DNA of 64,000 nt from assembly GCA_034717495.1 (NCBI GenBank), contig JAYELL010000001.1, positions 66,649-130,648 on the forward strand. The letters are read 5' to 3'. Every line of letters begins with the position of its first letter. The stretch's first letter is position 1. Positions 969-56,975 of the stretch are shown here, one piece after another. The position numbers were made by a program, and so were the translations under genes. The notes beneath the pieces were generated by a model, which ran no database searches, was not told the origin of the DNA, and saw nothing but the letters and a program-made list of their open reading frames with translations. Source of the DNA: Chloroflexota bacterium. GTDB lineage: Bacteria > Chloroflexota > Anaerolineae > JAAEKA01.

Positions 969-1039
969 TTCTGCTCGCGGACAGAAGCGTTTCGGCCTGA
1001 TCCCCCTTGATGAGCGTACCGTCAATACGCGCTACTCGA

Positions 1040-1290
1040 CCATGATTGGTGTCCAACATTCCCCCCCAGCCCCCCACAGGGGGGAGCTGCCGGAAATTCC
1101 CCCCGTTGGGGGGTTAGGGGGGCAAGTCTGGACTCCCGCGTTCCCCGCGTTTGCGAGGATGACAGCGGGAGAAAAGCGTACACGCAATGATCGGTATCCA
1201 TTCCCCCCTCCCAGCCGCTGCAGGGGGGAGCTGCCGGAAATTCCCCCCGTTGGGGGGTTAGGGGGGTCAGTGGTGGTTCCCAACTATTTT
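1040..1290. repeat. G/C-rich intergenic repeat block. Contains a 45-bp direct repeat (x2, ~1077-1122 and ~1222-1267) and a REP-like hairpin unit (~1128-1170) that recurs at ~25385-25430.
   Basis: The unit 'aggggggagctgccggaaattccccccgttggggggttagggggg' occurs twice. 'ggactcccgcgttccccgcg..gcgaggatgacagcgggag' has a ctcccgc/gcgggag inverted stem and a second copy near 25.4 kb. Confidence 0.6.
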
Positions 1291-1303
1291 CCGAGGCTTC
1301 GTT

Positions 1304-2892: not shown

Positions 2893-5800
2893 ATGCTACA
2901 TGAAATGCGTTGGACCGAAACGAAAATCAGGCAGCGTCTTGAGCTGATCGAGCCGTTGGTTTACCGCCGACGTCAGCCGTTGGCATCCTTCAGGCACATG
3001 ACCTTGCCTGATCCCCTGACAGATCCGCCCATCGGCATCGAGGTGGATGACAGTGATTGGGAGACCATTGAGCCCGACTCCTATTGGGGCATCTGGATGA
3101 CCGACTACGCGCTGCGCACGTCGTTCCAGGTGCCGCAGGACTGGGATGCCGACAGCCCTGTTGCCCTCTACTTGCCTTTGGGCGAGGCAGGAGACTTCAG
3201 CCATCCAGAGGGGCTGGCCTATATCGACGGCGAGCCCTACGCGGCCTGCGACCGTCATCACCAGGAGATACTACTACCCGACAAATGGCGCGATGGAAAG
3301 TCGCACCTGCTGGCCTTGCATACCTGGACCGGACTGGGTGGCTGGCGATTTGATTCCCCGGCTACCAAGCTCTTCATGCGCACGTGCGAGGTAGTTCAGC
3401 TGGACCAGCCGACCCGCGATTTTGTGGCAACAGCCAGGGTAGCCCTGGGCATCGCCAGCGCCCTGGACGAGAACGCACCGGCCAAGGGAAACCTTCTCAA
3501 CGCCCTGGACGAGGCGTTCAAGATCCTCGATACGCGCGCGCCACTCGCCGACCGGTTTTACAACAGCGTTGCCCCAGCGCACGCCGCCCTGCAAGCAGGG
3601 ATCGATCTGGCCGGGGCACCGATGGACGTGGACGTCGTCGGCGTGGGACACGCCCACATCGATGTGGCCTGGTTGTGGACCCTGGGCCAGACTCGCCGGA
3701 AATCGGGCCGCACCTTCCATACGGTATTGCGCCTGATGGAACAGTTTCCCGATTATCACTTCGTCCAGAGCCAGCCCCAGCTGTACGACTATATCCAGGA
3801 GGACTATCCCGGGTTGCTGGATGCAATCAAGGAGCGTGTTGCCGAAGGCCGCTGGGAACCTCTGGGGGGCATGTGGGTAGAGGCAGACTGCAATCTGAGC
3901 GGCCCTGAATCCCTGGCGCGTCAGTTTTTGCTGGGCCGCACCTTTTTCCAGGAACACTTCGGCCGCGATGCCGACTCTCCGGTGCTGTGGCTGCCTGACG
4001 TTTTCGGCTATGCGTGGGCATTGCCCCAACTCATCAAACAGGCGGGCCTGGACTACTTCATGACCATCAAGATCGGTTGGAACCAATACAACCGGCTGCC
4101 CTACGACAGCTTCTGGTGGCAGGGGCTGGATGGCACCAGGGTATTGACCCACTTCAGCACGACGCCGGACGTGGGCGGTGGTTTTGGTGCCAGCACGTAC
4201 AACGCCATGGCGGTACCCGAACAGGCCATTACCACCTGGACCAATTTCCAGCAGAAGGAGCTGCAGCAAGAACTGCTGATGATCTTTGGTTACGGCGACG
4301 GTGGCGGTGGACCCACGAGGGAGATGTTGGAGAATTTCCGCGAGCTGGAGGCTTTTCCGGCGACACCACGGATGCGGCAGGACAGCGCCGGTGATTTCTT
4401 CCGCAACCTTGAAACGACCTCCGGAGACCGCCTTCCGACCTGGAATGCTGAGCTCTATTTCGAGCTTCATCGCGGCACCTACACTACCCAGAGTCGCAAT
4501 AAGCGAGCCAACCGCAAGAGCGAGTTCTTGCTGCATGATGCCGAATATCTGGCCACATTAGCCGCCATGCTGGATTCTGGATATGAGTATCCTGCTGCTA
4601 CCATACGAAAGGCCTGGGAGTTGGTCTGCCTCAATCAGTTCCACGACATCATCCCGGGAAGCAGTATCAACCCTGTGTACGTCGAGTCCCTGGAACAGTA
4701 TGCCGAGATCGAGGAGATGGGGTCTGGCGTGCGAGACAAGGCTTTGCAGGCGGTGGCAACAATAATCGGCAGCGATATCCTGGTTGTGAACCCCACCTCC
4801 TTTGTCCTGGATGATCTGGCCTACCTGCCCGAGCAACTGCAGGCTGGTGAGCGTCTGCAGCGGCCCGATGGCGTGCCGGTACCGACCCAGGTGGCTGACG
4901 GTGGCACATGGGCCGCTACGGGCGAACTGGCTCCATTCAGCGTAACCCCGCTCGCCGTGGCCGGCGGCAACCCACCGGAGTTGGACACAGAACTCAATGT
5001 TTCGCCCACGCTGCTCGAAAACGCCTACCTCCGGGTGGAACTTGACCCGGCCGGTGACATCGTGCGCATTCTCGACAAGGCAAACGATCGGGAGGTGCTG
5101 CCGGCTGGTACGGTTGCCAATCAGTTCCAGGCCCTGGAGGACCGGCCAATGAACTGGGATGCCTGGGATGTGGACATCTTCATCGACGACAAGATGTGGA
5201 CTGCAGAACCGGCAACCTCGGTCGAGGTCGTGGAGGCGGGTCCGCTGCGGGCCACCCTGGAGATCCGCCGGCGCGTTCTCAACAGCAATTACGTTCAGCG
5301 CATCTCGTTGAGTCACAACAGCGCTCGCCTGGACTTCGATACCCAAATCGACTGGCGGGAACGTCATATCATGCTCAAAGTGGCCTTCCCGGTGGAGGTC
5401 TTCTCACCGGTGGCGACCTATGAGATCCAATGGGGCAACGTCGAGCGGCCCACCCACAGCAACACCAGTTGGGATTGGGCCCGCTTCGAGACCTGCGCTC
5501 AGAAATGGGTCGATCTTAGCGAGGGTGGCTATGGTATCAGTCTGCTCAACGACTGCAAGTATGGCCACGACATCAAGGACAATGTGATGCGCATTAGCCT
5601 GCTGCGCGGTCCAACCAGTCCCGATCCCGAGGCCGACCAGGGTGAACATCGTTTTGCGTACAGCTTGCTTCCCCACGCCGGTGGTTGGGGCGAGACGACA
5701 ATCGCGGCAGCCTATGCCTTGAATGATCCGTTGATTGTGTGGGTCAACCCAGGTGAACTTGAATCGTCGGCTCAGGCTACTCAGGTTGATGACTCTGGTG

Positions 5801-6093
5801 ATCGCCGCGTTGCCGTGTCTTCCCATCCCTCCTTCGTCTCGGTCGACCAGCCCAACGTGGTGGTGGAGACGATCAAACGAGCCGAGGATGGCAATGGTTT
5901 GATTGTGCGTCTTTACGAAAGCCAGCGCCGCCGTGGTCTTGTCACATTGACGGCGGCCTTTGAGGTTGCAGAGGCCTGGCATGCCAATCTCTTGGAGGAG
6001 AATGAGACGGAGCTGGAGGCCAGCGGCAACCAGGTGACCCTGTCCATCAAGCCCTACGAAATCGTGACCGTGCGTCTCATCCCGGTCGCCTGA
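2893..6093 (+). CDS. alpha-mannosidase, glycoside hydrolase family 38
   Basis: 1066 aa with GH38 N-terminal catalytic motifs (VGHAHIDVAWLW, LPDVFGY), followed by the central and C-terminal beta-sandwich regions typical of MngB-like enzymes. RBS aaaaggag sits upstream. Confidence 0.85.
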   Translation: MLHEMRWTETKIRQRLELIEPLVYRRRQPLASFRHMTLPDPLTDPPIGIEVDDSDWETIEPDSYWGIWMTDYALRTSFQVPQDWDADSPVALYLPLGEAGDFSHPEGLAYIDGEPYAACDRHHQEILLPDKWRDGKSHLLALHTWTGLGGWRFDSPATKLFMRTCEVVQLDQPTRDFVATARVALGIASALDENAPAKGNLLNALDEAFKILDTRAPLADRFYNSVAPAHAALQAGIDLAGAPMDVDVVGVGHAHIDVAWLWTLGQTRRKSGRTFHTVLRLMEQFPDYHFVQSQPQLYDYIQEDYPGLLDAIKERVAEGRWEPLGGMWVEADCNLSGPESLARQFLLGRTFFQEHFGRDADSPVLWLPDVFGYAWALPQLIKQAGLDYFMTIKIGWNQYNRLPYDSFWWQGLDGTRVLTHFSTTPDVGGGFGASTYNAMAVPEQAITTWTNFQQKELQQELLMIFGYGDGGGGPTREMLENFRELEAFPATPRMRQDSAGDFFRNLETTSGDRLPTWNAELYFELHRGTYTTQSRNKRANRKSEFLLHDAEYLATLAAMLDSGYEYPAATIRKAWELVCLNQFHDIIPGSSINPVYVESLEQYAEIEEMGSGVRDKALQAVATIIGSDILVVNPTSFVLDDLAYLPEQLQAGERLQRPDGVPVPTQVADGGTWAATGELAPFSVTPLAVAGGNPPELDTELNVSPTLLENAYLRVELDPAGDIVRILDKANDREVLPAGTVANQFQALEDRPMNWDAWDVDIFIDDKMWTAEPATSVEVVEAGPLRATLEIRRRVLNSNYVQRISLSHNSARLDFDTQIDWRERHIMLKVAFPVEVFSPVATYEIQWGNVERPTHSNTSWDWARFETCAQKWVDLSEGGYGISLLNDCKYGHDIKDNVMRISLLRGPTSPDPEADQGEHRFAYSLLPHAGGWGETTIAAAYALNDPLIVWVNPGELESSAQATQVDDSGDRRVAVSSHPSFVSVDQPNVVVETIKRAEDGNGLIVRLYESQRRRGLVTLTAAFEVAEAWHANLLEENETELEASGNQVTLSIKPYEIVTVRLIPVA

Positions 6094-6103
6094 CGTCCCG
6101 GTA

Positions 6104-6240
6104 AGGGCATGATATCCCAACTACGGAGCCTTGCCACGCGTGACGCCGCCCCACGGGATATCATGCCCCTGGGTACCCGCCGACGCCCGGCCACACGTGA
6201 CGACGCCCCATGGGATATCTTGTCCCCTGGGTACCCGGTG
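6104..6240 (+). promoter_or_regulatory. hairpin plus tandem ~55-bp palindrome-rich direct repeat between the GH38 and epimerase genes; operator-like
   Basis: gggcatgatatccc (6106-6119) is the reverse complement of gggatatcatgccc (6161-6174). Two ~85%-identical copies 'cac(g/a)cgtgacg(c/a)cgcccca(c/t)gggatatc(a/t)tg(c/t)ccctgggtaccc' each carry the palindromes CACGCGTG/CACACGTG and GGGTACCC. Confidence 0.5.
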
Positions 6241-6264
6241 CCTGTCATCAAGGAGATCATCACC

Positions 6265-7074
6265 ATGCCAAATCCCATCGGTAACGTCCGTCAAAAGGTA
6301 AAGATCGCAGCCGGCCTGTTCTGGGCGGATTACGCAGTGCTGGGCGCGCAGGTTCAGGAATTGGAGGCGGCCGGCGTCGACTGGTTGCATATCGAAGTGC
6401 GCGATGGCACCTATATGGACTTCGGCATGCCTCGCGGTGGCTTCGATATCATCGAGGCGGTGCGCAAAAGCACCTCCCTTCCGATCGAGGCACAGTTACA
6501 GATGGTGCGGCCGAGCTTCGATGTCTTTCGGCAACTGGCAGACCTGGGCGTGGACCTGATCACACTGCCGGTCGAGACGATGGCTGAACTCACAATGCAA
6601 GCCATCACCTTCATCAAGGACGCTCTCGATCTGAAGGCCGGCGTCTGGGCCTGGCAGGGTGTGCCGATAGCCGCGTTCGAGCAATACCTGTTACCTTTCG
6701 TCGACATCATCGAGTACGAGAGTCGGGCTCATTTCTGGGTCAAGGAAACTGGCAAGAGCCCTCACACCATGGACCCGATCATGGTCGAAAACATCCATCG
6801 TCTGCACACCATGATTCTTGACGCGGGGCTGGAGGAAAGAATCGATCTGATGGAGGACGGTGGCTTGAACGCCGGCAATGTGGCTGAGTTCATCGAAGCA
6901 GGCATGACCGTGGGCGAGTTTTCATCGCCGCTGCTCAAGGGACCCGATGGCAAATATCAGCCTGGCATCGGCCAGATCGAAGCAGCTGTGGCAAGGCTGC
7001 GTGCAGTGATGGATAAGGCGAGCGATACCTATCGAAACGAAGATGGGCTGATCAGCAGCCAACAGAAGAGGTAG
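6265..7074 (+). CDS. ribulose-phosphate 3-epimerase family protein, divergent, with non-canonical metal-site residues
   Basis: Collinear with RPE: IAAGLFWADYAVLGAQV / DWLHIEVRDGTYMDF / LPIEAQLQMV match IAPSILSADF.. / DWxHxDVMDGHFVPN / LPxDVHLMV. The conserved Asp (HxDVMDG) is Glu here and the DVHLMV His is Gln. RBS aaggag; start chosen after the repeat region. Confidence 0.5.
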   Translation: MPNPIGNVRQKVKIAAGLFWADYAVLGAQVQELEAAGVDWLHIEVRDGTYMDFGMPRGGFDIIEAVRKSTSLPIEAQLQMVRPSFDVFRQLADLGVDLITLPVETMAELTMQAITFIKDALDLKAGVWAWQGVPIAAFEQYLLPFVDIIEYESRAHFWVKETGKSPHTMDPIMVENIHRLHTMILDAGLEERIDLMEDGGLNAGNVAEFIEAGMTVGEFSSPLLKGPDGKYQPGIGQIEAAVARLRAVMDKASDTYRNEDGLISSQQKR

Positions 7075-7078
7075 GCAG

Positions 7079-8221
7079 ATGAAACAACTGGGAATCGCCA
7101 TGATCGGCTATGGCGGAATCGGCCGCGTGCACGCGATGGCCTACCGGACGATCCCGTTCCATTATGGCCTGGCCGCAGACACGTTCAGGATCGTTGGTGT
7201 TGCCACCACTCAGGAGACTACAGCCCGCAAGGCCGCGGCTGAGATTGGTTGCGAAAACTGGACGAGCGATTATCGGGACCTGCTGGCGCGCGACGATGTG
7301 GATCTGGTCGACGTCTGCGTGCCAAATCATAAACATGAGGAAATCGTCGTAGCGGCTGCCGAAGCTGGAAAACATATCTACTGCGAAAAACCACTCTCGA
7401 TGGATGTTGCAGAGGGCAAGCGCATGGTAGCTGCTTGCGAGCTGGCGGGAATAAAAACCCAGATGACCTTCAATTTTCGCTTTTTCCCGGCGATTACACG
7501 GGCGCGGCAGTTGATGGAGCAGGGCTTCCTGGGGCGCATCTTCTCCTTTCGGGGCCGCTACTACCGCTCCAGCTACATTGACACCAATAAACCCCTCTCC
7601 TGGCGATTGCGCAAGGAGATCGCCGGCGGCGGTGCCCTCTTTGACCTTGGGTCCCACGTGCTCGACCTGGTCACCTACCTGTTGGGTGATTTTGGGTCGG
7701 TACAGGCAACCATCGACACATTGATCAGGGAACGCCCGATAGCTCCCGGGTCGGATGAGATGGCCCCGGTGGATGTGGATGATATTGCTCTGATGCATCT
7801 GCGCATGGCCGATGGCACCCTGGGTCTTGTCGAGATCTCCCGGATGGGTACAGGTGCCACCAATGACCTCCAGATCGAGATATTTGGCGATCGGGGCGCG
7901 ATGCGCTTCAATTCGACCGACCCCAGTTGGCTGGAAGTGTATGATCTGCGGGACCCTGGTCAACCACTGGGCGGCATGAGGGGATTCCGTAAACTGGAAA
8001 CGGTGCAGCGCCACGAGGGTCAGAAGTCGCCCGACTGGTCGATGCCGCCAGGTTTTGTGCGGGCTCATGCCGAGTGTCAATACCAGTTCTTGCGTGCGAT
8101 CGTCGACGATGTCTCTTCCAGCCCGTCGCTGGCCGACGGCTTGCGTGTGCAGGAGGCCATGGAGGCGGCCCTTCAGTCCTCGGCCCAGAATCGCTGGGTA
8201 ACGGTGGAGGAAGTGAGGTAG
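7079..8221 (+). CDS. Gfo/Idh/MocA family NAD(P)-dependent oxidoreductase
   Basis: N-terminal Rossmann motif IAMIGYGGIGRVHA, EKPLS motif, C-terminal alpha/beta domain; 380 aa. Confidence 0.8.
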   Translation: MKQLGIAMIGYGGIGRVHAMAYRTIPFHYGLAADTFRIVGVATTQETTARKAAAEIGCENWTSDYRDLLARDDVDLVDVCVPNHKHEEIVVAAAEAGKHIYCEKPLSMDVAEGKRMVAACELAGIKTQMTFNFRFFPAITRARQLMEQGFLGRIFSFRGRYYRSSYIDTNKPLSWRLRKEIAGGGALFDLGSHVLDLVTYLLGDFGSVQATIDTLIRERPIAPGSDEMAPVDVDDIALMHLRMADGTLGLVEISRMGTGATNDLQIEIFGDRGAMRFNSTDPSWLEVYDLRDPGQPLGGMRGFRKLETVQRHEGQKSPDWSMPPGFVRAHAECQYQFLRAIVDDVSSSPSLADGLRVQEAMEAALQSSAQNRWVTVEEVR

Positions 8222-8291: not shown

Positions 8292-9254
8292 ATGCTGAAT
8301 CCCTGGGTTATCGGCGCCGATTTGGGCGGCACCAAGATCGAGTTGGGCCTGGTTGATCCTGAGAACCAGGTTGTGGCCCGGAGGCGCATTGCCACCGAGG
8401 CCGAAAAAGGGCCCGATCACGTGGTCAACGGAATCGCTGGCAGCGTCGGCGATCTTCGCGCTGCCCTGCCTTCAGGAGCGAAGATAGCAGCTCTGGCCAT
8501 CTGCTCGCCCGGTCCGCTCGATCACGAAAGCGGTGTGTTGATGGACCCGCCCAATCTTCGCGGCCTTCATAACACACCCTTGCGCCAAATGCTGGAGGAT
8601 CGACTGCAGATGCCGGTTGCCCTGGAGCATGATGCTAAGGCCGCTGCTCTGGGTGAGCTTAACTTCGGTGCCGGCCGCGGGGCATCCAGTATGGTCTATA
8701 TCGTCGTCGGTACCGGTGTGGGTGCGGCCATAATCCTGGATGGCAACATGGTCCGCGGCGAACATAACTTTGCCGGTGAGGTAGGGCATATCACCATTGA
8801 CCGCTACGGGGAGTTGTGCCACTGCGGAAGCCGGGGCTGTGCCGAAACCTTTATCAGCGGTCCTTCCCTTGCGAAACGATATCGCCAGGCCATGGAGAAT
8901 GAGGGCAGCGCTGTAGATGCCCGGCCCATCTCGGGAGAGTTTGTGTCGGAGCTGGCTGCCCAGGGTGACCACCTGGCTGAAACCGTTATGCAGGCCGCCG
9001 GCGAGGCGCTGGGACTGGTCGTCGCTTCCCTGGCGATGACTGTCAATGTCGACCTGTATGTCATTGGCGGTAGTGTGGTCAATGCAGGTGACCTGCTGCT
9101 CGAGCCCGCGCGCCGTACTGTCCCCCACTATACCTTCCAGTCGGTGGGTGACAACGTGCGCATTGTTGCAGCCGGGCTGGGGGGAGTTGGACCCGTTCTG
9201 GGCTGTGCGTGGCTTGCCCGGCAGATCGACCAGGAGGATTTGCTGCAAAAATGA
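8292..9254 (+). CDS. ROK family sugar kinase (glucokinase-like; no N-terminal HTH)
   Basis: Begins directly with the ATP-binding motif IGADLGGTKIELGLVD. ROK zinc motif HCGSRGCAETFISG. 320 aa with no wHTH extension, so kinase rather than repressor. Confidence 0.75.
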   Translation: MLNPWVIGADLGGTKIELGLVDPENQVVARRRIATEAEKGPDHVVNGIAGSVGDLRAALPSGAKIAALAICSPGPLDHESGVLMDPPNLRGLHNTPLRQMLEDRLQMPVALEHDAKAAALGELNFGAGRGASSMVYIVVGTGVGAAIILDGNMVRGEHNFAGEVGHITIDRYGELCHCGSRGCAETFISGPSLAKRYRQAMENEGSAVDARPISGEFVSELAAQGDHLAETVMQAAGEALGLVVASLAMTVNVDLYVIGGSVVNAGDLLLEPARRTVPHYTFQSVGDNVRIVAAGLGGVGPVLGCAWLARQIDQEDLLQK

Positions 9255-11683
9255 GACAAACCTTGCACCAGCTCAACGAAAATCCCCTATCAGCCTTTCC
9301 TCCAGAGTTGTGGCATTCTACACGGCCCTCTGAACGGGCGGCCCGCATCAAGGGCCGGTTGCTGAGCGATGAACGCCAGGTTGATATCGAGCGGGCTCGC
9401 TACGCGACAGAGAGCTACAGGGAAACCGAGGGACGGCCCATGCCTCTGCGTCGGGCCGCCATGCTGCTTCATCTGGTCCGCCACATGAGCATCGGCATTG
9501 AGCCCGACGAGTTGATCGTGGGCAACCGTTCCTTGTTACCCAGAATGGGAGTCATTGCGCCGGAGGGCGCCGTCGCCTGGATCGATCGGGAACTGGATAT
9601 CCTTTCCACTCGTCCCCAGGATCGCTTCAACATTCGTCCGGAGCAGCGTAGTGAGCTCCGCGAACAGATATTTCCCTATTGGCAGGGCAAAACCCTGGAG
9701 GATATGGTTGCCAGGCGCGTGCCCGATCATGTCAAGGTAGCGGTGAAGGGCAAAGCCTTCAGTCTGAACCAGACCGATCATGCTCAGGGCCACATCCTGC
9801 CTGACGTCGCCGGTTGGTTGAGGCTTGGGATCGGCGGCTTCAGGCGAAAAGTGATCGAGGCTCAAGGTGGTGCTGAAACTGCCGGGCAGGAGGTGTTTTA
9901 CAGGGCCTCGCTGATGGCTCTTGAGGCGGCTCAAACCTTCATACGCCGTTACGCCCATCTCGCCCGTCAGCAGGCCAACGACATGGCCGAACAGACCAGA
10001 AGGGCTGAGTTGGAAGAGATCGCCTCGGCGTGCGATCTGCTTTCTGAACGGCCACCTCGAACCTTCGGGCAGGCATTGCAGGCGGTCTGGTTTCTTTTTG
10101 TGCTTCTGCAGATCGAATCAAATGCCAGCAGTTTTTCGCCCGGGCGCCTGGACCAATACCTGTTGCCCTGCCTGGAGCGGGATATTGCCTCGGGTCGCCT
10201 CTCCCTTCCCGAGGCCCAGGAACTGTTGGAGCATCTTTGGTTGAAGTTCAATGAGATCGTCTTGCTGCGAAGTAGCAGCAGCGCCCGCTATTTCGCCGGT
10301 TTTCCCATCGGTTTCAACATCTCCCTGGGAGGACAGCTGGAAGAGGGCCGCGATGCCACCAATATGCTCAGCTACATGTGCCTCAGGGCCCAGGCCGACC
10401 TGGGTCTGACTCAACCCAATCTGTCGATCCGTATCCACCAAAACAGCCCTCAGGAGTTTCTGATGGCTGCCACTGCTGTCATCAGCAAGGGCAGTGGTAT
10501 GCCCCAGGTGTTCAACGATGAGGTGGTGATCCCGGGCCAGATAAACCGGGGGATTGCCCCGGTCGACGCCCGAAACTACGCGGCCGTCGGCTGCGTTGAG
10601 CTGTCCACACCGGGCAAGGCATTGGGCTGGAGTGATTCCTCTATGTTCAATATGATCAGGGTGTTGGAGCTGACGCTCTTTGGCGGCAGAGACCCAAAGA
10701 GCGGCGACCTGATCGGCCTCGAAACGCCTGCCGTGGACGAGATGGATAGCTTCGATGCCCTCGAGGCTGCCTATGACTTGCAGTTGGCTCACTTCGTCGA
10801 TCTGATGGTGCAAGGCTGCAATGTGGTGGACCGCATTCATGCCGAGGTTCTGCCGTCCCCCTTTCTGTCGCTGGTTATCGAGGACTGCATCGACCAGGGG
10901 GTTGACGTTACTGCCGGCGGTGCCCGCTACAATTTCTCCGGTCCCCAGGGTGTGCAGATTGCCAACGTTGCCGATAGCCTGGCTGCCATTTGCCAGGCCG
11001 TTTTCGAGGAGGCGTGGCTCTCGGGCAGTGAGCTGCTCGACGCGCTGCAAAACGATTTTGCCGGCGACGAACAACTGCGGCAACGGCTGATCAACCGGGT
11101 TCCAAAATATGGCAACGACGACGACCGCGTCGACAGGTTCGCCAAAAAATGGGCAGGCCGTTTTTGCCAGGAAGTTGGCCAATACCCGACGATGCGGGGC
11201 GGGACCTACCAGCCTGGTTTTTATACCGTCTCCGGGCACATGCCCATGGGCGCCCATGTAGGCGCGACGCCGGATGGCCGTCATGCTGGCACACCGCTGG
11301 CGGACGGCGGACTTTCGCCCGTGGCCGGCCAGGACCGCAAAGGGCCGACGGCGGTACTTAATTCGGTCGGCAAAATCAACCTGGAACTGGCTTCCAATGG
11401 CACCTTGCTGAATATGAAGTTTTTGCCTTCTTTTTTCGAGGGACAGCAGGCACTGGAGAAGTTCGTCTTGTTGTTGCGAGGGTTCTGTAGCTTGCGAATC
11501 CCTCACGTGCAGTTCAATGTCGTCTCGGCTGATACCCTGCGCCAGGCTCAGATGCATCCCGATCAGTATCGCCACTTGGTTATCCGGGTAGCCGGCTACA
11601 GTGCCTACTTCAGCGACCTGGACAAAGATCTGCAGAATGAGATTATCCGCCGTACCGGGTTTCCCGACATTCCGACATGCTGA
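9251..11683 (+). CDS. glycyl radical enzyme, eliminase/dehydratase clade (PFL-like fold)
   Basis: C-terminal glycyl-radical motif RVAGYSAYFSDL. Cys loop GCVE (VGCVELSTPGK), typical of single-Cys/Glu GRE eliminases (glycerol dehydratase, CutC, HypD type) rather than the PFL CC type. N-terminal region matches GRE eliminases (ERARYATESYRETEGRPMPLRRA...LIVGN). The ATG at 9251 overlaps the ROK stop. Confidence 0.85.
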   Translation: MRQTLHQLNENPLSAFPPELWHSTRPSERAARIKGRLLSDERQVDIERARYATESYRETEGRPMPLRRAAMLLHLVRHMSIGIEPDELIVGNRSLLPRMGVIAPEGAVAWIDRELDILSTRPQDRFNIRPEQRSELREQIFPYWQGKTLEDMVARRVPDHVKVAVKGKAFSLNQTDHAQGHILPDVAGWLRLGIGGFRRKVIEAQGGAETAGQEVFYRASLMALEAAQTFIRRYAHLARQQANDMAEQTRRAELEEIASACDLLSERPPRTFGQALQAVWFLFVLLQIESNASSFSPGRLDQYLLPCLERDIASGRLSLPEAQELLEHLWLKFNEIVLLRSSSSARYFAGFPIGFNISLGGQLEEGRDATNMLSYMCLRAQADLGLTQPNLSIRIHQNSPQEFLMAATAVISKGSGMPQVFNDEVVIPGQINRGIAPVDARNYAAVGCVELSTPGKALGWSDSSMFNMIRVLELTLFGGRDPKSGDLIGLETPAVDEMDSFDALEAAYDLQLAHFVDLMVQGCNVVDRIHAEVLPSPFLSLVIEDCIDQGVDVTAGGARYNFSGPQGVQIANVADSLAAICQAVFEEAWLSGSELLDALQNDFAGDEQLRQRLINRVPKYGNDDDRVDRFAKKWAGRFCQEVGQYPTMRGGTYQPGFYTVSGHMPMGAHVGATPDGRHAGTPLADGGLSPVAGQDRKGPTAVLNSVGKINLELASNGTLLNMKFLPSFFEGQQALEKFVLLLRGFCSLRIPHVQFNVVSADTLRQAQMHPDQYRHLVIRVAGYSAYFSDLDKDLQNEIIRRTGFPDIPTC

Positions 11684-11923: not shown

Positions 11924-13156
11924 ATGCTAAGTTCGCGTGAACGGGTGATGATGGCTGTTAACCACCGGGAGCCCGATCGCGTACCGATCGATCTGGGCGG
12001 CCATCGCTCGTCCGGGATCATGGCGATTGCCTACAATCAGCTGAAGCGGCAGCTGGGAATCGACTCGGGCGACATCTACGTCTACGATTTTCTGCAGCAA
12101 TTGGCGATTATCGAGCCTGAGGTGTTGGACCGCTTTGGCGTCGACACAATCGAAATGGGGCGCGGGTTTGCACTTGAGCCGGAAGACTGGCAGGATTGGG
12201 TGTTGCCTGACGGGACCCCGTGCAAGATTCCCTCCTTCATTCACCCTGTTCGCGAAGGCAATGATTGGTACGTCTACCACGAGGATGGCACTCGAATCGC
12301 GGTTCAGAAAGAGAGCTGTTTATATGTGGAGCAGACCTGTTTCCCGCTTGCTGAGAGCGACGATCAGCTCTTTGACGATCTGGCAACGCCCCTGGAAAGG
12401 GTCATGTGGGCAGCCGTGGGTACCCCTCCGGCGCCCATTGGCTACGACGAACAGGGGCTGCAACAACTGGCTGCCGGGGCGAAGGCTCTGCGCGAGTCGA
12501 GCGATCGGGCCATAATCGGACTCTTCGGCGGGAACATCTACGAGTTGCCCCAGTGGCTCTTCAGCATGGAAAACTTTTATTACCTCATGGGCGCGGAGCC
12601 ACAGCGAGTACACCGGCTGTTGGACCAACTGGTAGCCATGCACTTGGAGAACCTGGAGAAGTTCCTGTCAGCGGTTGGGCCCTACATCGACATCATTCTT
12701 TTCGGCGACGACCTGGGTATGCAGAGTGGCCCCCAGTTCTCGCCTCGCATGTTCGAGACCTACTTCCAGCCTCGTTACACTCTGATGTGGGAAACGGCCA
12801 GACGCCTTGCCGATGTCAAGGTAATGCTGCATTGCTGCGGCAGTATCACGCGGTTATTGCCCGGCCTGATCGAAGCGGGGTTGGATATCATTCAGCCTGT
12901 CCAGACCAACGCACGGGATATGGAACCTGACCGGCTCAAGCGCGAGTTTGGCAAGGATATCTGTCTCTGGGGCGGTGGATGTGACACACAGCAGGTGTTG
13001 CCCTGCGGGTCACCCGAGGAGGTGGCCGAGAATGTTCGTCAGAACGTAGAGATCCTGGCGCCGCAAGGCGGCTACGTATTTCAGCAGATTCATAACGTGA
13101 TGGCCGATGTTCCGCCCGAAAATATCGTCGCCATGCTGGATGCTGTTAACCCCTGA
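11924..13156 (+). CDS. uroporphyrinogen decarboxylase (URO-D/MtaA) family protein
   Basis: N-terminus ERVMMAVNHREPDRVPIDLGG matches the URO-D family opening (ERVxAALxGxxxDRVP). C-terminal core FSPRMFETYFQPRY...VMLHCCGSITRLLPGLIEAGLDIIQPVQ...ICLWGG...PQGGYVFQQIHNV. Confidence 0.7.
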   Translation: MLSSRERVMMAVNHREPDRVPIDLGGHRSSGIMAIAYNQLKRQLGIDSGDIYVYDFLQQLAIIEPEVLDRFGVDTIEMGRGFALEPEDWQDWVLPDGTPCKIPSFIHPVREGNDWYVYHEDGTRIAVQKESCLYVEQTCFPLAESDDQLFDDLATPLERVMWAAVGTPPAPIGYDEQGLQQLAAGAKALRESSDRAIIGLFGGNIYELPQWLFSMENFYYLMGAEPQRVHRLLDQLVAMHLENLEKFLSAVGPYIDIILFGDDLGMQSGPQFSPRMFETYFQPRYTLMWETARRLADVKVMLHCCGSITRLLPGLIEAGLDIIQPVQTNARDMEPDRLKREFGKDICLWGGGCDTQQVLPCGSPEEVAENVRQNVEILAPQGGYVFQQIHNVMADVPPENIVAMLDAVNP

Positions 13157-18406: not shown

Positions 18407-19363
18407 ATGCAACCACGAGATCGTTTCATCGCCGCCCTGGAGCGACGTCCCTTTACGGGCCGGGTACCCCATTTTGAACTGGTTTTTTATCTGACCATGG
18501 AGGCATTCGGCAGGGTTCATCCCGGACACCGAAGTTATCACCAGTGGATGCAGATGGATGAGGAGGAACGCCAGTTGCACCGGGTCGATATGGCCGGTCT
18601 TTATATCGCCACGGCAGAACGCTATGAGCACAGCGCCATCTTTCTCCATCCCAATCCAGACTCGCTGGAAGAGACCATTCGTCTGGTCGATCTTGTTCGG
18701 GAGCGTACCGGTGACCGCTACTTCCTCATGCGGCACGGGGACGCTACCTTCAGCATTCCCGACGGCACCACGATGGTGGATTTCGTCTACCGACTGGCCG
18801 ATGAGCCAGACAAGGTCAAAGCTGAGGCCCAGGAAAATGTAAACCATGCTCTTGAGCTCGCGGAGCAGCTGGCGAAACATGGAGAACTCGACGGATTCGC
18901 ACTCTGTGCGGATTACTGCTTCAACAGCGGGCCCTTTCTGAGTCCCAGGATGTTCTCGGAATTCATCACGCCCTATCTCACACAGCTTGTTCGCGGTTAT
19001 CGCCAACTGGGTTTCTACGTCATCAAACATACTGACGGCAACATCATGCCGATTATCGACGATCTGTTGGAGGGCGAACCCCATGCGCTGCATTCTCTGG
19101 ATCCGCAAGCCGGAATCGACATCGCCCAGGTTAAGCGGGATTTCGGCCATCGGGTCTGCCTGATTGGCAACGTCAATTGCGGGCTGTTGGATACCGGTAC
19201 CGAGGAAGAAGTCATCGAATCGGCCAGCTATGCGTTGAGGCACGGCATGCCCGGCGGAGGTTACATCTTTTCCACCAGCAATTGCATCTACACCGGCATG
19301 CGTCTCTCCCGCTACGAGTTGATGCTGGACGTCTGGCGCCGCGAGGGCAATTATGACGCGTAG
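18407..19363 (+). CDS. uroporphyrinogen decarboxylase (URO-D/MtaA) family protein, second paralog
   Basis: RDRFIAALERRPFTGRVPHFEL N-terminus. Strong C-terminal collinearity with URO-D/MtaA (FLSPRMFSEFITPY...IKHTDGNIMPIIDDLLEGEPHALHSLDPQAGIDIAQVKRDFGHRVCLIGNV...PGGGYIFSTSN). Preferred over the overlapping antisense ORF 18305-19243. Confidence 0.7.
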   Translation: MQPRDRFIAALERRPFTGRVPHFELVFYLTMEAFGRVHPGHRSYHQWMQMDEEERQLHRVDMAGLYIATAERYEHSAIFLHPNPDSLEETIRLVDLVRERTGDRYFLMRHGDATFSIPDGTTMVDFVYRLADEPDKVKAEAQENVNHALELAEQLAKHGELDGFALCADYCFNSGPFLSPRMFSEFITPYLTQLVRGYRQLGFYVIKHTDGNIMPIIDDLLEGEPHALHSLDPQAGIDIAQVKRDFGHRVCLIGNVNCGLLDTGTEEEVIESASYALRHGMPGGGYIFSTSNCIYTGMRLSRYELMLDVWRREGNYDA

Positions 19364-21284: not shown

Positions 21285-21547
21285 GGGGGCGCGGCGACGG
21301 TTTGGACCACGAAGGCGCGAAGGATCGCGGATGACACGAAGCGCGAAGGAGACGAAGGACACGAAGGACACGGAGACATGGCGATAGGGCGACGGTTTGG
21401 ACCACGAAGGCGCGAAGGATCGCGGATGACACGAAGCGCGAAGGAGACGAAGGACACGGAGACACGGCGATAGGGCGACCCTGCGACTCTGAAACTCTGA
21501 GACTCTGAGACTCTGAGACTCGGGAACCCTGGAAGAAGGAACAACCA
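21285..21547 (+). repeat. octamer-phased repeat block with a ~100/86-bp tandem duplication and a (gactctga)n run, upstream of the GH2 gene
   Basis: 'gggcgacggtttggaccacgaaggcgcgaaggatcgcggatgacacgaagcgcgaaggagacgaaggacac..ggagaca(t/c)ggcgata' occurs twice (~21288-21387 and ~21388-21473). Then gactctgaaactctgagactctgagactctgagactc, then gaaggaacaaccaATG. Confidence 0.6.
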
Positions 21548-31648: not shown

Positions 31649-31933
31649 AATTCTCTCCCTGGTTTGGATGGCGTTGAGGCTTCAGCCGGTTTCGTGTCTG
31701 ACCGACCAAAGCATACTGAACAATTGCCGTTTCGTACATGGATTGCTCCGATTATACCCGCGGCATGCTGATAGCGCAAAAAATCAGTTTCTCAGACCTG
31801 GGTTATTCCCGCAGATAGCGCATAGTCCCTGTGTATTCCCAGGCGGGATTTCATTTGACAGCGCGACACCGCTGTGTTATCATCTCTTTGCAACATCTGT
31901 TCAAGCCTGTTCATCTGTTCAAGTGAGGCGCCG

Positions 31934-32971
31934 ATGCGTTCCGATGCCGACAGGCACACGCTCTTGTACAAGATCGCCAAGGCCTATTACGAGGACGGGC
32001 TCACCCAGCACCAGATCGGTCGACGCTTTAGTCTCTCCCGCGTCAAGGTCTCGCGCCTTTTGCAGGAGGCACGAGATGAACGAGTTGTCCAGATTGCCAT
32101 CGTTTCTTCCATTGACTCCAACGCGGACCTCGAACGTGAACTGGAAGCTCGCTTTGACCTTCTGGAGGCCGTCGTCGTCACCCCTGCGGACTACAGTGCT
32201 CCCGTGATTCTTCAGGAACTGGGTACTGCAGCGGCTAATCATCTGATGCGCTGCCTGCAGGGCAAGGAGATTGTGGCCCTGAGCTGGGGCACTACCCTGC
32301 ATGCCGTGATCGAGGCGCTGCCCGCTCAGAACTGGCCCGATCTGAAGGTCGTGCAGATCCTTGGTGGCGTTGGTGATCCAGAGGTCGAAGTTCATGGCAA
32401 CGATCTCTCCCGCCGGATGGCTCAATCCTTTGGCGCCCAACTTCGTTTCATGCCATCCCCGGGTATCGTTGGCAGCAGGCAAGTGCGCGACGCGTTGATC
32501 GGCGATCCCCAGATTGCGTCAAGCCTGGCATTGGGCCAACGGGCCGACGTGGCGCTGGTAGGCATCGGTGTGCCTATCCCGGGATCGGTGGTCGACCGGG
32601 CAGGTATTCTATCGAAGGATGAGATCGTCGAGTTGGCGAACCTCGCTGCTGTGGGTGACATTGCTCTGCGATTCTTCGACAAAAACGGCCAACCCACCCA
32701 GCACGCGATCAACGATCGTATCGTTGGCCTGGATATCGACCAAATGAGGCGGATACCCCGCAGGATCGGTGTGGCTGGTGGTAGTGACAAACACCAGGCG
32801 ATTGGCGCAGTGCTGCGTGGCGGCCTCGTCAATGTTATCGTGACCGATGAGCGCAGCGCCAGATATCTGCTCACCAGCTCCGGAAAGGCCCCGGATTCAG
32901 CCAACGGGATAGCAGCTCAGGCGACGATTGGCAACACCGTGCGATCGCCTGGCGAACTGGTTCATGGGTGA
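31934..32971 (+). CDS. SorC/DeoR-family sugar-binding transcriptional regulator
   Basis: N-terminal HTH LLYKIAKAYYEDGLTQHQIGRRFSLSRVKVSRLLQEARDERVVQIAI, followed by a ~250-aa sugar-phosphate-binding domain, as in CggR/DeoR(Bsu)/LsrR. Confidence 0.75.
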   Translation: MRSDADRHTLLYKIAKAYYEDGLTQHQIGRRFSLSRVKVSRLLQEARDERVVQIAIVSSIDSNADLERELEARFDLLEAVVVTPADYSAPVILQELGTAAANHLMRCLQGKEIVALSWGTTLHAVIEALPAQNWPDLKVVQILGGVGDPEVEVHGNDLSRRMAQSFGAQLRFMPSPGIVGSRQVRDALIGDPQIASSLALGQRADVALVGIGVPIPGSVVDRAGILSKDEIVELANLAAVGDIALRFFDKNGQPTQHAINDRIVGLDIDQMRRIPRRIGVAGGSDKHQAIGAVLRGGLVNVIVTDERSARYLLTSSGKAPDSANGIAAQATIGNTVRSPGELVHG

Positions 32972-43061: not shown

Positions 43062-43176
43062 CATTCCTGCGTTCGTGGTGGGTGGCCTGGTGTCACCAAC
43101 CGGTCACCCACCACATTCCTGAGGCGTGGTAAGCCTTACGATTCGCGTACCAGGCAGTTCGCCAGCGGAGATGCTT

Positions 43177-52389: not shown

Positions 52390-53142
52390 TCAGCATCCCT
52401 CCCTGTCTACGACTGGCGCGGCCAGCTGGGCGTATCGCTCCGTATTTTTTCGCATCTGCTCAAGATTGTCGCGCATGGCCTGCCGGGCTCCCTCGGCATC
52501 ACGTGCTTCGATTCGTTCGAGCAGCCGTCTGTGATGGGGGATGTTGTCTTTCCAGGGATCGAGAAAGACCGTCACCAATGCAATGTATTCGTACAGGAGG
52601 TCGCGGATGGAGTCCATCAGGACGATCAAGAGAGGATTGTGGGTCATTGCTGCGATTGCCCTGTGGAACTCGGTGTCGTGGACCGCCAGCAGTTCGACGT
52701 CGGCCTGAGCCGCTTCCATGCTTTCGAAGATTGCCCTGAGGTGGGCTAATTCTCCGTCGGTGGCCTGGCAGGCGGCAAGGCCACCAGTCTCTACCTCCAG
52801 TATCGACCGCACCTGGTGAAGGTCGTGAAAGGAAATCGTTCCGCTTCCGTGGGCTCGCAAGTAGAGACCCAGGGGCTCCATCACCTGTTGGCTGGTCAGC
52901 TGCCGGACCTGGGTACCGACGCCGTGTTGTGTTTCCAATAAGCCCTTGGCTACAAGGATGCCCACCGCCTCACGCACGACGGTACGGCTGACGCCGAGTT
53001 GTTCGGCAAGTTCCCTTTCCGGGGGCAGTCGCGTTTCCGGTGCCAGGTCACCCTGGACGATCAGCCCTTCGATTTCCAGGACTACCTGGTCAACCAGGTT
53101 TTCTTTTGTTCCGACTGCCCGAAACGGGCTGCCTGGGTTCAT
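52390..53142 (-). CDS. GntR-family transcriptional regulator (FadR/FCD subfamily)
   Basis: N-terminal wHTH (LPPERELAEQLGVSRTVVREAVGILVAKGLLE) with a C-terminal all-helical FCD-type domain. Confidence 0.8.
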   Translation of the reverse strand: MNPGSPFRAVGTKENLVDQVVLEIEGLIVQGDLAPETRLPPERELAEQLGVSRTVVREAVGILVAKGLLETQHGVGTQVRQLTSQQVMEPLGLYLRAHGSGTISFHDLHQVRSILEVETGGLAACQATDGELAHLRAIFESMEAAQADVELLAVHDTEFHRAIAAMTHNPLLIVLMDSIRDLLYEYIALVTVFLDPWKDNIPHHRRLLERIEARDAEGARQAMRDNLEQMRKNTERYAQLAAPVVDREGC

Positions 53143-55718: not shown

Positions 55719-56681
55719 CTAGACCACCCGGTACAGCGGTTCGTCGCCACGCAGCGCCCGCAGGCAGTTTTCCAGGCACATTTTCCCTTGCTTGCGCTGG
55801 GCGTCGACGGTACGGCCGCCCAGGTGAGCGGTGAGCACGACGTTATTGAGGTCGAGCAGGGGACTGTCGACCGGGGGTTCCGTGACAAAGGCGTCCAGGC
55901 CGGCTCCTGCAATCTGACCTTCCTGAAGAGCAGTGACCAGCGCCTCTTCGTCCACCAGCGCGCCGCGGGCGGTATTGACCAGTATTGCCGTTGGTTTCAT
56001 CATGTCCAGCTCGCTGGCTCCAATCAGTGGCCCATCGATCATTTCGACTGCCGCGTGCAGCGACACAACGTCGGCTTGAGCGATCAGCTCGGCAAGAGAC
56101 GCGAAAGTAACCCCATTTTCGGCCGCCCATGCAGAATCCGGGTAAGGGTCGAAGGCCAGAACGGTCATGCCAAAGGATCGTGCCCGCAAGCAGACTTGCT
56201 TGCCGATTCGTCCCAGCCCGACGACTCCCATTTTTTTGTCCTGCAATTCCATGCCATAGACTGCCTGCCAACCACCCTGGCAAACATCGTTGTGGCTGCG
56301 CACCACACCACGTGCCACAGCCAGCAACAGGGCCATGGTCAGGTCTGCTACCGAGTGATGGTTGGTGCCCGGCGTGGCGGAAACGACAATGCCTCGGGCC
56401 TGGGCTGCATCCAGATCGATGGTCTCCAATCCTACGCCATGTTTGGCAATCGTGCGTAAACTCACGGCCGCGTCGATCACCTCGGCCGTGAGTTCATCGG
56501 TGCCGGTGATGATGGCGTCCATGCCGGGCAGAATCTCAAGCAATTCCTCGGCCCGGTAGGCTCGTCCGACGCTGTTAGGGATGACCTCGCAGCCAGCTTG
56601 TTTGAGTTGTGTGATATGCTCGGGAATTCGTTTTCCAAAGGAACGAGAGCCGATCAGCACTCGCCATTTTCTTTCGGTCAT
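55719..56681 (-). CDS. D-isomer-specific 2-hydroxyacid dehydrogenase family protein
   Basis: GVVGLGRIGKQV NAD motif; catalytic region RGALVDEEAL..; substrate-binding N- and C-lobes; RBS aaagga. Confidence 0.8.
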   Translation of the reverse strand: MTERKWRVLIGSRSFGKRIPEHITQLKQAGCEVIPNSVGRAYRAEELLEILPGMDAIITGTDELTAEVIDAAVSLRTIAKHGVGLETIDLDAAQARGIVVSATPGTNHHSVADLTMALLLAVARGVVRSHNDVCQGGWQAVYGMELQDKKMGVVGLGRIGKQVCLRARSFGMTVLAFDPYPDSAWAAENGVTFASLAELIAQADVVSLHAAVEMIDGPLIGASELDMMKPTAILVNTARGALVDEEALVTALQEGQIAGAGLDAFVTEPPVDSPLLDLNNVVLTAHLGGRTVDAQRKQGKMCLENCLRALRGDEPLYRVV

Positions 56682-56689
56682 CCGTTGTC

Positions 56690-56975
56690 CTTTCGTTATG
56701 TCGGAATGTCATCATGCCATCATGTCATTGCGCTGTCACCGCGTCACCGTGTCTTCCTTTCGCCGTGTCTCCCTATCTCTACGTCTCCGTGTCTCCCTAT
56801 CGCCGCGTCCCCGTGTCGCCCTATCGCCGTGTCACCGCGTCTCCCTATCTCTACGTCTCCGTGTCTCCCTATCGCCGCGTCCCCGTGTCTCCCTATCGCC
56901 GCGTCACCGCGTCTCCCTATCGCCGCGTCACCGCGTCTCCCTATCGCCGCGTCACCGCGTTTGTCTCAAGAATCG
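56690..56975 (-). repeat. long 8-bp-phased repeat array (24-bp super-period, about 33 octamers) upstream of the minus-strand dehydrogenase operon
   Basis: On the top strand (cgccgcgt caccgcgt ctccctat)n. In gene sense this reads gacgcggtgacgcggcgatagggagac..., the same family as 11684-11923. It ends in gacattccgacat 15 nt before the ATG at 56681. Confidence 0.6.

Follow-up and report, generated by a model that had tools for sequence, protein, structure and literature searches.

What kind of element is the palindrome-rich tandem repeat that lies between an alpha-mannosidase gene and an epimerase gene of a Chloroflexota bacterium, and does it have any role in the expression of its neighbors? 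We have analyzed the whole stretch of 64,000 nt in which it is found (hereafter the window), a sugar-catabolism island. A previous examination (the sequence-only reading) had proposed either a tandem operator for a sugar-responsive repressor or an intra-operon attenuator. The explanation that we favor, with a probability of about 0.45, is an RNA stem-loop lacking a U-tract and located just after the stop codon, within a probable polycistronic transcript, that would act as a 3'-end barrier or partial terminator and one arm of which would have been copied by tandem duplication. The features on which the argument depends are the following, in coordinates of the window.

2893–6093, + strand: GH38 alpha-mannosidase gene, 1066 amino acids, the upstream cistron (ORF call; Pfam Glyco_hydro_38N, Alpha-mann_mid, 38C and 38C2)
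6091–6093, + strand: stop codon TGA of the GH38 gene
6105–6118, + strand: 5' stem arm GGGCATGATATCCC, an inverted copy of the repeat-unit core (sequence, inverted-repeat scan, fold)
6128–6184, + strand: direct repeat copy 1, 57 nt (repeat search, nhmmer)
6135–6142: 8-nt palindrome CACGCGTG, within the loop of 36 nt and 2 nt away from the midpoint of the inverted repeat
6155–6168, + strand: 3' stem arm GGGATATCATGCCC, inside repeat copy 1 (14 bp, no mismatch)
6171–6178: palindrome GGGTACCC of copy 1, perfect
6185–6242, + strand: direct repeat copy 2, 58 nt (repeat search, nhmmer)
6229–6236: palindrome GGGTACCC of copy 2, perfect
6250–6255, + strand: Shine-Dalgarno-like AAGGAG, 9 nt before the epimerase start (sequence, fold)
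6265–7074, + strand: Ribul_P_3_epim-family (ribulose-phosphate-3-epimerase-family) gene, 269 amino acids (Pfam)
7079–8221: GFO/IDH/MocA oxidoreductase gene, the second of a conserved pair of which the epimerase gene is the first

Limits and anatomy of the spacer

The extent of the spacer depends on where the epimerase begins. We have placed its start at the ATG at 6265 because the NCBI model has 269 amino acids, the homologues have 264–269, the AAGGAG precedes this codon and the Pfam homology runs from residue 13. An in-frame ORF opening at 6109, that would add 52 residues to the epimerase, was rejected on the same grounds. Therefore, the spacer (6094–6264, 171 nt, 64% G+C) and its repeats are intergenic and non-coding despite the presence of this ORF. 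The NCBI protein U9R25_00295 (269 amino acids, from a Chloroflexota bacterium MAG) was 100% identical to the epimerase, the next-best match among about 5.8 billion proteins being only 85% identical. Among the other genes of the sugar-catabolism cluster there are a PFL-like glycyl-radical enzyme and two URO-D-like genes (9209–11683, 11924–13156 and 18407–19363), and no glycyl-radical activase was seen among the window ORFs scanned.

The left stem arm begins 11 nt after the GH38 stop, and the arms GGGCATGATATCCC and GGGATATCATGCCC are 100% complementary over 14 nt, with eight of the 14 pairs being G-C. This corroborates the 14-bp stem described previously at this position, with the correction that 36 nt and not 42 nt separate the arms (50 nt start to start); the whole stem-loop has 64 nt. 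Also in agreement with the earlier description, which gave about 55 bp for each of two direct repeats, the 3' arm is contained in the first of them. The two copies are about 84% identical (nine mismatches and one indel, a T inserted in copy 2) and were retrieved by nhmmer with E-values of 2e-14 and 2.5e-16. An assembly artefact can be discarded because the direct copies have diverged by 16%. Copy 2 contains a degenerate version of the arm, GGGATATCTTGTCC (6212–6225), that could pair less well with 6105–6119. A reverse-strand match of the repeat unit was detected by nhmmer at 6144–6104, i.e., the left part of the region can be read as a partial inverted copy of the unit, since CACGCGTG is its own reverse complement. 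The motif GGGATATC(A/T)TG(T)CCC is found in three copies, one inverted and two direct, and the sequence that follows the stem (past 6168) is CTGGGTACCCGCC.

Three short palindromes had been assigned to each repeat. GGGTACCC is perfect in both copies, and GATATC is present three times in the spacer (6111, 6157 and 6214). CACGCGTG, with which the conserved part of repeat copy 1 starts, is a perfect 8-mer only in this copy, and copy 2 has CACACGTG, that holds only the hexamer CACGTG. An extra palindrome, CCCATGGG, was found in copy 2 at 6207. As had been stated, the spacer is unrelated to the octamer repeats of the window, with neither an octamer array nor an 8-nt periodicity reported by TRF.

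Non-randomness and predicted folding

Among the perfect inverted repeats of the 64-kb window with arms up to 120 nt apart, that of 14 nt is the longest, and by our own arithmetic only about 0.01 perfect inverted repeats of 14 nt would be expected per window. The region was rightly called palindrome-rich, as the density of palindromes in 6104–6241 falls within the top 0.1% (6-mers) and 0.4% (8-mers) of 138-nt segments, a figure of which half is due to the duplication. Folding of the GH38 3' UTR, which had been suggested as a check, gave a stable stem-loop. On the + strand, the hairpin at 6100–6172 had a predicted energy of −31.6 kcal/mol (z −3.4) and none of 200 shuffles was as stable. The − strand reached −41.3 kcal/mol (z −4.6), a gain of about 10 kcal/mol that is due to three additional G-U pairs on this strand. 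The single repeat units folded no better than shuffles (z +1.4 and −1.2), indicating that the hairpin, and not the unit, is the structured element. The consensus fold of the two repeat copies contained no compensatory changes, and the three differences that fall inside a possible unit hairpin are all at unpaired positions. The left arm can pair with the right arm of either repeat copy, and in the predicted RNA fold the GGGTACCC at 6171–6178 pairs with the copy at 6229–6236. The spacer as a whole was only moderately structured (z about −2) next to the other spacers of the window. The AAGGAG was unpaired in the centroid fold and, therefore, no obstacle to epimerase translation is predicted.

A junction found in a single MAG

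We have compared the junction with two sets of orthologous loci, one of 80 epimerase loci (69–83% amino acid identity), mostly from Anaerolineae or Caldilineaceae MAGs, and another of 80 GH38 loci (63–75%). The epimerase-oxidoreductase pair was kept in most of the former. A GH38 gene was found upstream of the epimerase in none of the 80 epimerase loci, and an epimerase downstream of GH38 in none of the 80 GH38 loci. In the closest retrievable relatives (84–85% amino acid identity), a short and plain spacer preceded the epimerase, and the gene upstream encoded a Zn-alcohol-dehydrogenase or a SorC-type regulator. The loci with the epimerase-oxidoreductase pair (L001–L080) also include MAGs labelled as Spirochaetia, Trueperaceae, Deinococcales, Poribacteria and Acidobacteriota, at 72–80% amino acid identity, a taxonomic spread that suggests either horizontal spread or mis-binning.

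The sequence of the spacer was equally restricted. Using an nhmmer profile of the two copies, blastn and tblastx, we found no significant homologue of the spacer in the 160 related loci (nhmmer E-values in the orthologous spacers were above 0.6), and the 8-mer palindromes were present in none of 80 epimerase-upstream regions and in at most one of 78 GH38-downstream regions of relatives. Within the window, neither the unit nor the three-palindrome module was detected a further time by mismatch search, nhmmer or blastn. The mismatch search was carried out with the 14-mer, the 14-nt CCCCTGGGTACCCG block and GCCACRCGTGACG, allowing up to 2–3 mismatches, and only the local copies matched well; with three mismatches the 14-mer gave 20 matches vs. 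8.1 expected in the window, an excess that falls in coding sequence. Allowing for flexible spacers, the module had no exact match in 185,579 species-representative genomes, in 241 million metagenome records or in IMG/VR. The search for a regulon that had been recommended gave, hence, no further site in the 64 kb or in the genome, metagenome and viral collections. The sequence-only reading had also considered that its proposal would fail if there were no other copies and no conservation, and this is what we found within 64 kb, or 1–2%, of the source genome and 158 orthologous flanks. Among everything searched, the GH38-epimerase junction and its sequence are private to the source MAG.

Two other matters came up in these searches. 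The cluster of restriction-site-like palindromes suggested an origin in a vector, plasmid or phage, which was rejected since the spacer had no blastn match in plasmid and phage collections. On the other hand, positions 12–38 of the repeat unit showed a weak antisense resemblance to a GH38 coding segment of the window (5419–5445, − strand, E 0.2–1), with counterparts at the equivalent site of many GH38 loci (nhmmer E 0.2–7). We have rejected it as chance, recurring only because this GH38 coding segment is conserved.

Signals of expression and mobility

No sigma-70-like promoter was found on the + strand of the spacer, the sole match being on the − strand. The spacer is also richer in G+C than those upstream of GH38 (2699–2892) and of the SorC-type gene (31649–31873), which have 47–51% vs. 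64%, and the latter holds the best promoter match of the window. Both the lack of a + strand promoter and the high G+C fit read-through from GH38. The promoter match mentioned (31855–31883, TTGACA-17-TGnTATCAT, 11/12) overlaps the mechanical start of the SorC-type ORF (31874), indicating that the true start codon of this gene is located further downstream. A sigma-54 promoter in the spacer was rejected by eye, as there is no TGGCAC-N5-TTGC.

A scan of 5800–6600 gave no terminator-like sites. The stem-loop is positioned after a stop codon on the coding strand, like intrinsic terminators, but it has neither the short loop nor the U/T-tract, and with a loop of 36 nt and no U-tract after the stem it cannot be considered a canonical intrinsic terminator. 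In Rfam 15, nothing reached the gathering score in the whole window, and lowering the requirement to E up to 10 for 5800–6600 gave only chance-level eukaryotic miRNA, lncRNA and snoRNA models, with E of 0.18 or worse. No tRNAs were found.

No regulator gene adjoins the spacer. The neighboring ROK protein has 320 amino acids, the length of a kinase, with the ROK domain at residues 7–311 and no separate match to a DNA-binding domain in Pfam. The sole regulators of the window are the SorC-type gene (31874–32971) and a GntR/FCD gene (52390–53142), 25 and 46 kb away, and no related motif was found in the spacers next to them. Regarding mobility, no transposase, RAYT or integrase domain was detected among the window ORFs scanned against Pfam, and the arms have no target-site duplication, the flanks (..GGTAA| and |CTGGG..) not being duplicated. 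An integron attC site was rejected by eye, for the lack of RYYYAAC/GTTRRRY cores.

Hairpins after other gene ends

Perfect inverted repeats with arms of at least 10 nt (and up to 36 nt) were found within 120 nt after the stop codon in 23 of 75 GH38 orthologues (31%), as compared with three of 234 coding control segments (1.3%) with arms of at least 10 nt. The sequences of these post-stop inverted repeats are unrelated to one another, i.e., their recurrence is analogous and not homologous. In the window itself, hairpins without a T-run were present at two other gene ends (43075–43114 and 56459–56494). A long hairpin after the stop is, therefore, a normal trait of gene ends in this group, and the 14-bp stem conforms to this class.

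Other repeats in the spacers

Several kinds of tandem repeats abound between the genes of this genome, and its spacers can be described as repeat-prone. The most structured spacer of the window (969–1303, MFE −162/−165 kcal/mol, z −4.3/−7.5), between an ABC ATPase gene and a pentapeptide-repeat gene, contains two direct copies of about 70 nt (about 1049–1118 and 1200–1270) of a C-run/G-run hairpin element, ..CAGGGGGGAGCTGCCGGAAATTCCCCCCGTTGGGGGGTTAGGGGGG.., that belongs to no Rfam family. The tandem arrays of octamers are frequently paired in inverted orientation, with one array followed by its approximate reverse complement, and such pairs would form long hairpins. One such pair is located upstream of GH38 (2693–2844), with GAGTATCA-type and then GACACTCC-type octamers. 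In several other Anaerolineae MAGs (L001, L004, L008, L009, L013 and L014), the same inverted architecture, made of different octamers, was found in the 170 nt that precede the start of the epimerase orthologue, for example GTGTTGCG x3 ... CGCAACAC in L001. Higher-order tandem repeats with periods of 95 and 72 nt, 92–94% identity and octamer sub-repeats were present in the spacers 21293–21521 and 56747–56960. The inverted arrays of tandem octamers, found in many spacers of the source and related genomes, are the more general phenomenon. Our literature search on octamer or intergenic repeats in Chloroflexi retrieved only a general survey of prokaryotic satellites, in which Chloroflexus aurantiacus is listed among the satellite-rich bacteria (PMC6749651).

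Origin and possible role of the stem-loop

A stable stem-loop directly 3' of a cistron, significantly below its shuffles, is one of the features of the post-stop protective or intercistronic hairpins, which are a functional class and not a sequence family, and the spacer contains one. We propose that the junction would have been formed when the GH38 gene was placed in front of the conserved epimerase-oxidoreductase pair, and that a 57-nt segment including the 3' arm would later have been duplicated in tandem, probably as a by-product of slippage in a repeat-prone genome, the copies having since diverged by about 16%. We infer that GH38 and the epimerase are co-transcribed, so that the spacer would be part of a polycistronic mRNA. 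At the RNA level, the stem-loop would be a barrier to 3'-to-5' exonucleases, a weak terminator or both, and the transcript levels of the GH38 segment and of the downstream genes could thus differ. Neither the second repeat copy nor the small palindromes would be separate functional sites, but by-products of the duplication. Of the former proposal of an intra-operon attenuator, the part in which an RNA structure decouples the epimerase genes from the mannosidase is the most plausible functional reading, but no alternative regulated structures were seen and the term attenuator in its strict sense is unsupported.

Some observations go against this post-stop barrier, among them the lack of a U-tract and the loop of 36 nt. 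The greater stability on the − strand may be a sign of an antisense RNA or of a role at the DNA level. In the GH38 orthologues the hairpins may stand at genuine ends of operons, but here the next gene runs in the same direction. Finally, this is a single genome, and the same sequence data are predicted if the origin is entirely neutral. The possibility that the hairpin and the duplication are just a neutral scar, left by rearrangement and replication slippage at the junction and without any effect on expression, has to be taken seriously, even if we consider it doubtful. The privacy of the junction and its sequence to one MAG, the drift of 16% between the copies (including a change by which copy 2 lost the CACGCGTG palindrome), the abundance of intergenic tandem repeats of several kinds and the moderate structure of the whole spacer next to the others of the window (z about −2) are all in keeping with a scar. 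However, a 14-bp stem free of mismatches is unexpected given the drift between the direct copies, and its position right after the stop is a recurrent feature of GH38 orthologues.

The tandem operator of the sequence-only reading, in which a sugar-responsive regulator of the SorC, GntR or a similar type, acting as a dimer or oligomer, would bind the palindromes and control the epimerase operon, we regard as unlikely. There is no + strand promoter to repress, no second site in 64 kb, including the spacers by the SorC-type and GntR genes, no conservation of the palindromes in 158 orthologous flanks, no module in the genome, metagenome and viral collections, and no adjacent regulator gene. In addition, the spacings of 57 and 50 nt would amount to about 5.4 and 4.8 helical turns, placing the sites out of phase. 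This outweighs the high density of palindromes, the three GGGATATC(A/T)TG..CCC copies (one inverted, two direct), the SorC-type regulators located directly upstream of the epimerase in some relatives, the SorC-type gene of the window (31874–32971) and the use of direct repeats by some SorC-family regulators such as CggR. It is rather improbable that we are dealing with a decayed and partly duplicated MITE-like or REP/BIME-like element, mobile or dispersed and of small size, with 14-nt terminal inverted repeats, in spite of the perfect inverted termini that flank 36 nt at an extragenic 3' gene end and of another, unrelated, short repeat family present twice in the spacer 969–1303, because nhmmer and blastn found no other copy in the window, the module had no exact match in the genome, metagenome and viral collections and the spacer no blastn match in those of plasmids and phages, the arms lack target-site duplications and no transposase, RAYT or integrase domain was present among the ORFs scanned against Pfam. 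A highly improbable alternative is that the GGGATATC(A/T)TG(T)CCC copies, together with GGGTACCC and CACGCGTG, are a multi-site platform for an unrecognised DNA- or RNA-binding protein of this lineage, with further copies in the other 98–99% of the source genome; such a protein could act as a regulator, or as a recombinase to which the GH38-epimerase junction would also be due. As for a cis-regulatory RNA in the epimerase 5' leader, responsive to a ligand or protein (tandem riboswitch-like modules or an attenuator), we give it very little credit. A tandem arrangement upstream of a sugar-metabolism operon, a left arm able to pair with either copy of the right arm and three differences at unpaired positions of a possible unit hairpin are in its favor, but no Rfam family appeared even at E up to 10, the units folded no better than shuffles, no terminator or SD-sequestering alternative was found and, with no homologue in the loci searched, there is no covariation.

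Overall, the locus looks like a real but ordinary, lineage-private gene-end hairpin plus a local duplication, and not like a shared regulatory switch. It marks the point at which, specifically in this lineage, a GH38 gene has joined a conserved epimerase-oxidoreductase operon, with little import beyond annotation, and provides one more example of the long hairpins without U-tract and the repeat-prone spacers that gene ends carry in these Chloroflexota. If the post-stop hairpin does set the ratio of GH38 to epimerase expression, it would be a small case of a new operon junction acquiring an insulator at the RNA level.

Comparison with known systems

The direct-repeat operators of SorC/DeoR-type regulators (e.g., CggR) share with the spacer the direct repeated blocks upstream of a sugar-phosphate operon, and SorC-type genes are neighbors of the epimerase in relatives. 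However, the unit of the spacer has 57 nt, vs. about 20 nt, and there is no promoter overlap, adjacent regulator, other site in the window or conservation. Like REP/BIME and MITE repeats, the element is extragenic, forms a hairpin and has adjacent inverted and direct copies, but it differs from them in having no further copies in the 64 kb or in the public collections searched, no RAYT or transposase and no target-site duplication. It cannot be filed as an operator, as a REP/MITE element or as a riboswitch. A position after the stop and a stable stem are shared with the canonical Rho-independent terminators, although the spacer has no T-run and its loop of 36 nt is far above their 3–8 nt.

The known systems that it would resemble most in the way of working are of two kinds. 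The REP hairpins in the malE-malF spacer of E. coli are described as intercistronic stem-loops by which the mRNA upstream is protected against 3' exonucleases, and terminator hairpins of the U-less "I-shaped" type have been reported in GC-rich bacteria. Compared with them, the loop of the spacer hairpin is long (36 nt), one of its arms is embedded in a tandem duplication and, unlike a genome-wide family, it is single-copy in the 64-kb window. What they have in common is a stable stem-loop placed a few nucleotides after the stop, between co-directional genes and without a U-tract, and by analogy the spacer hairpin would work most like these intercistronic or post-stop protective hairpins and U-less terminators.
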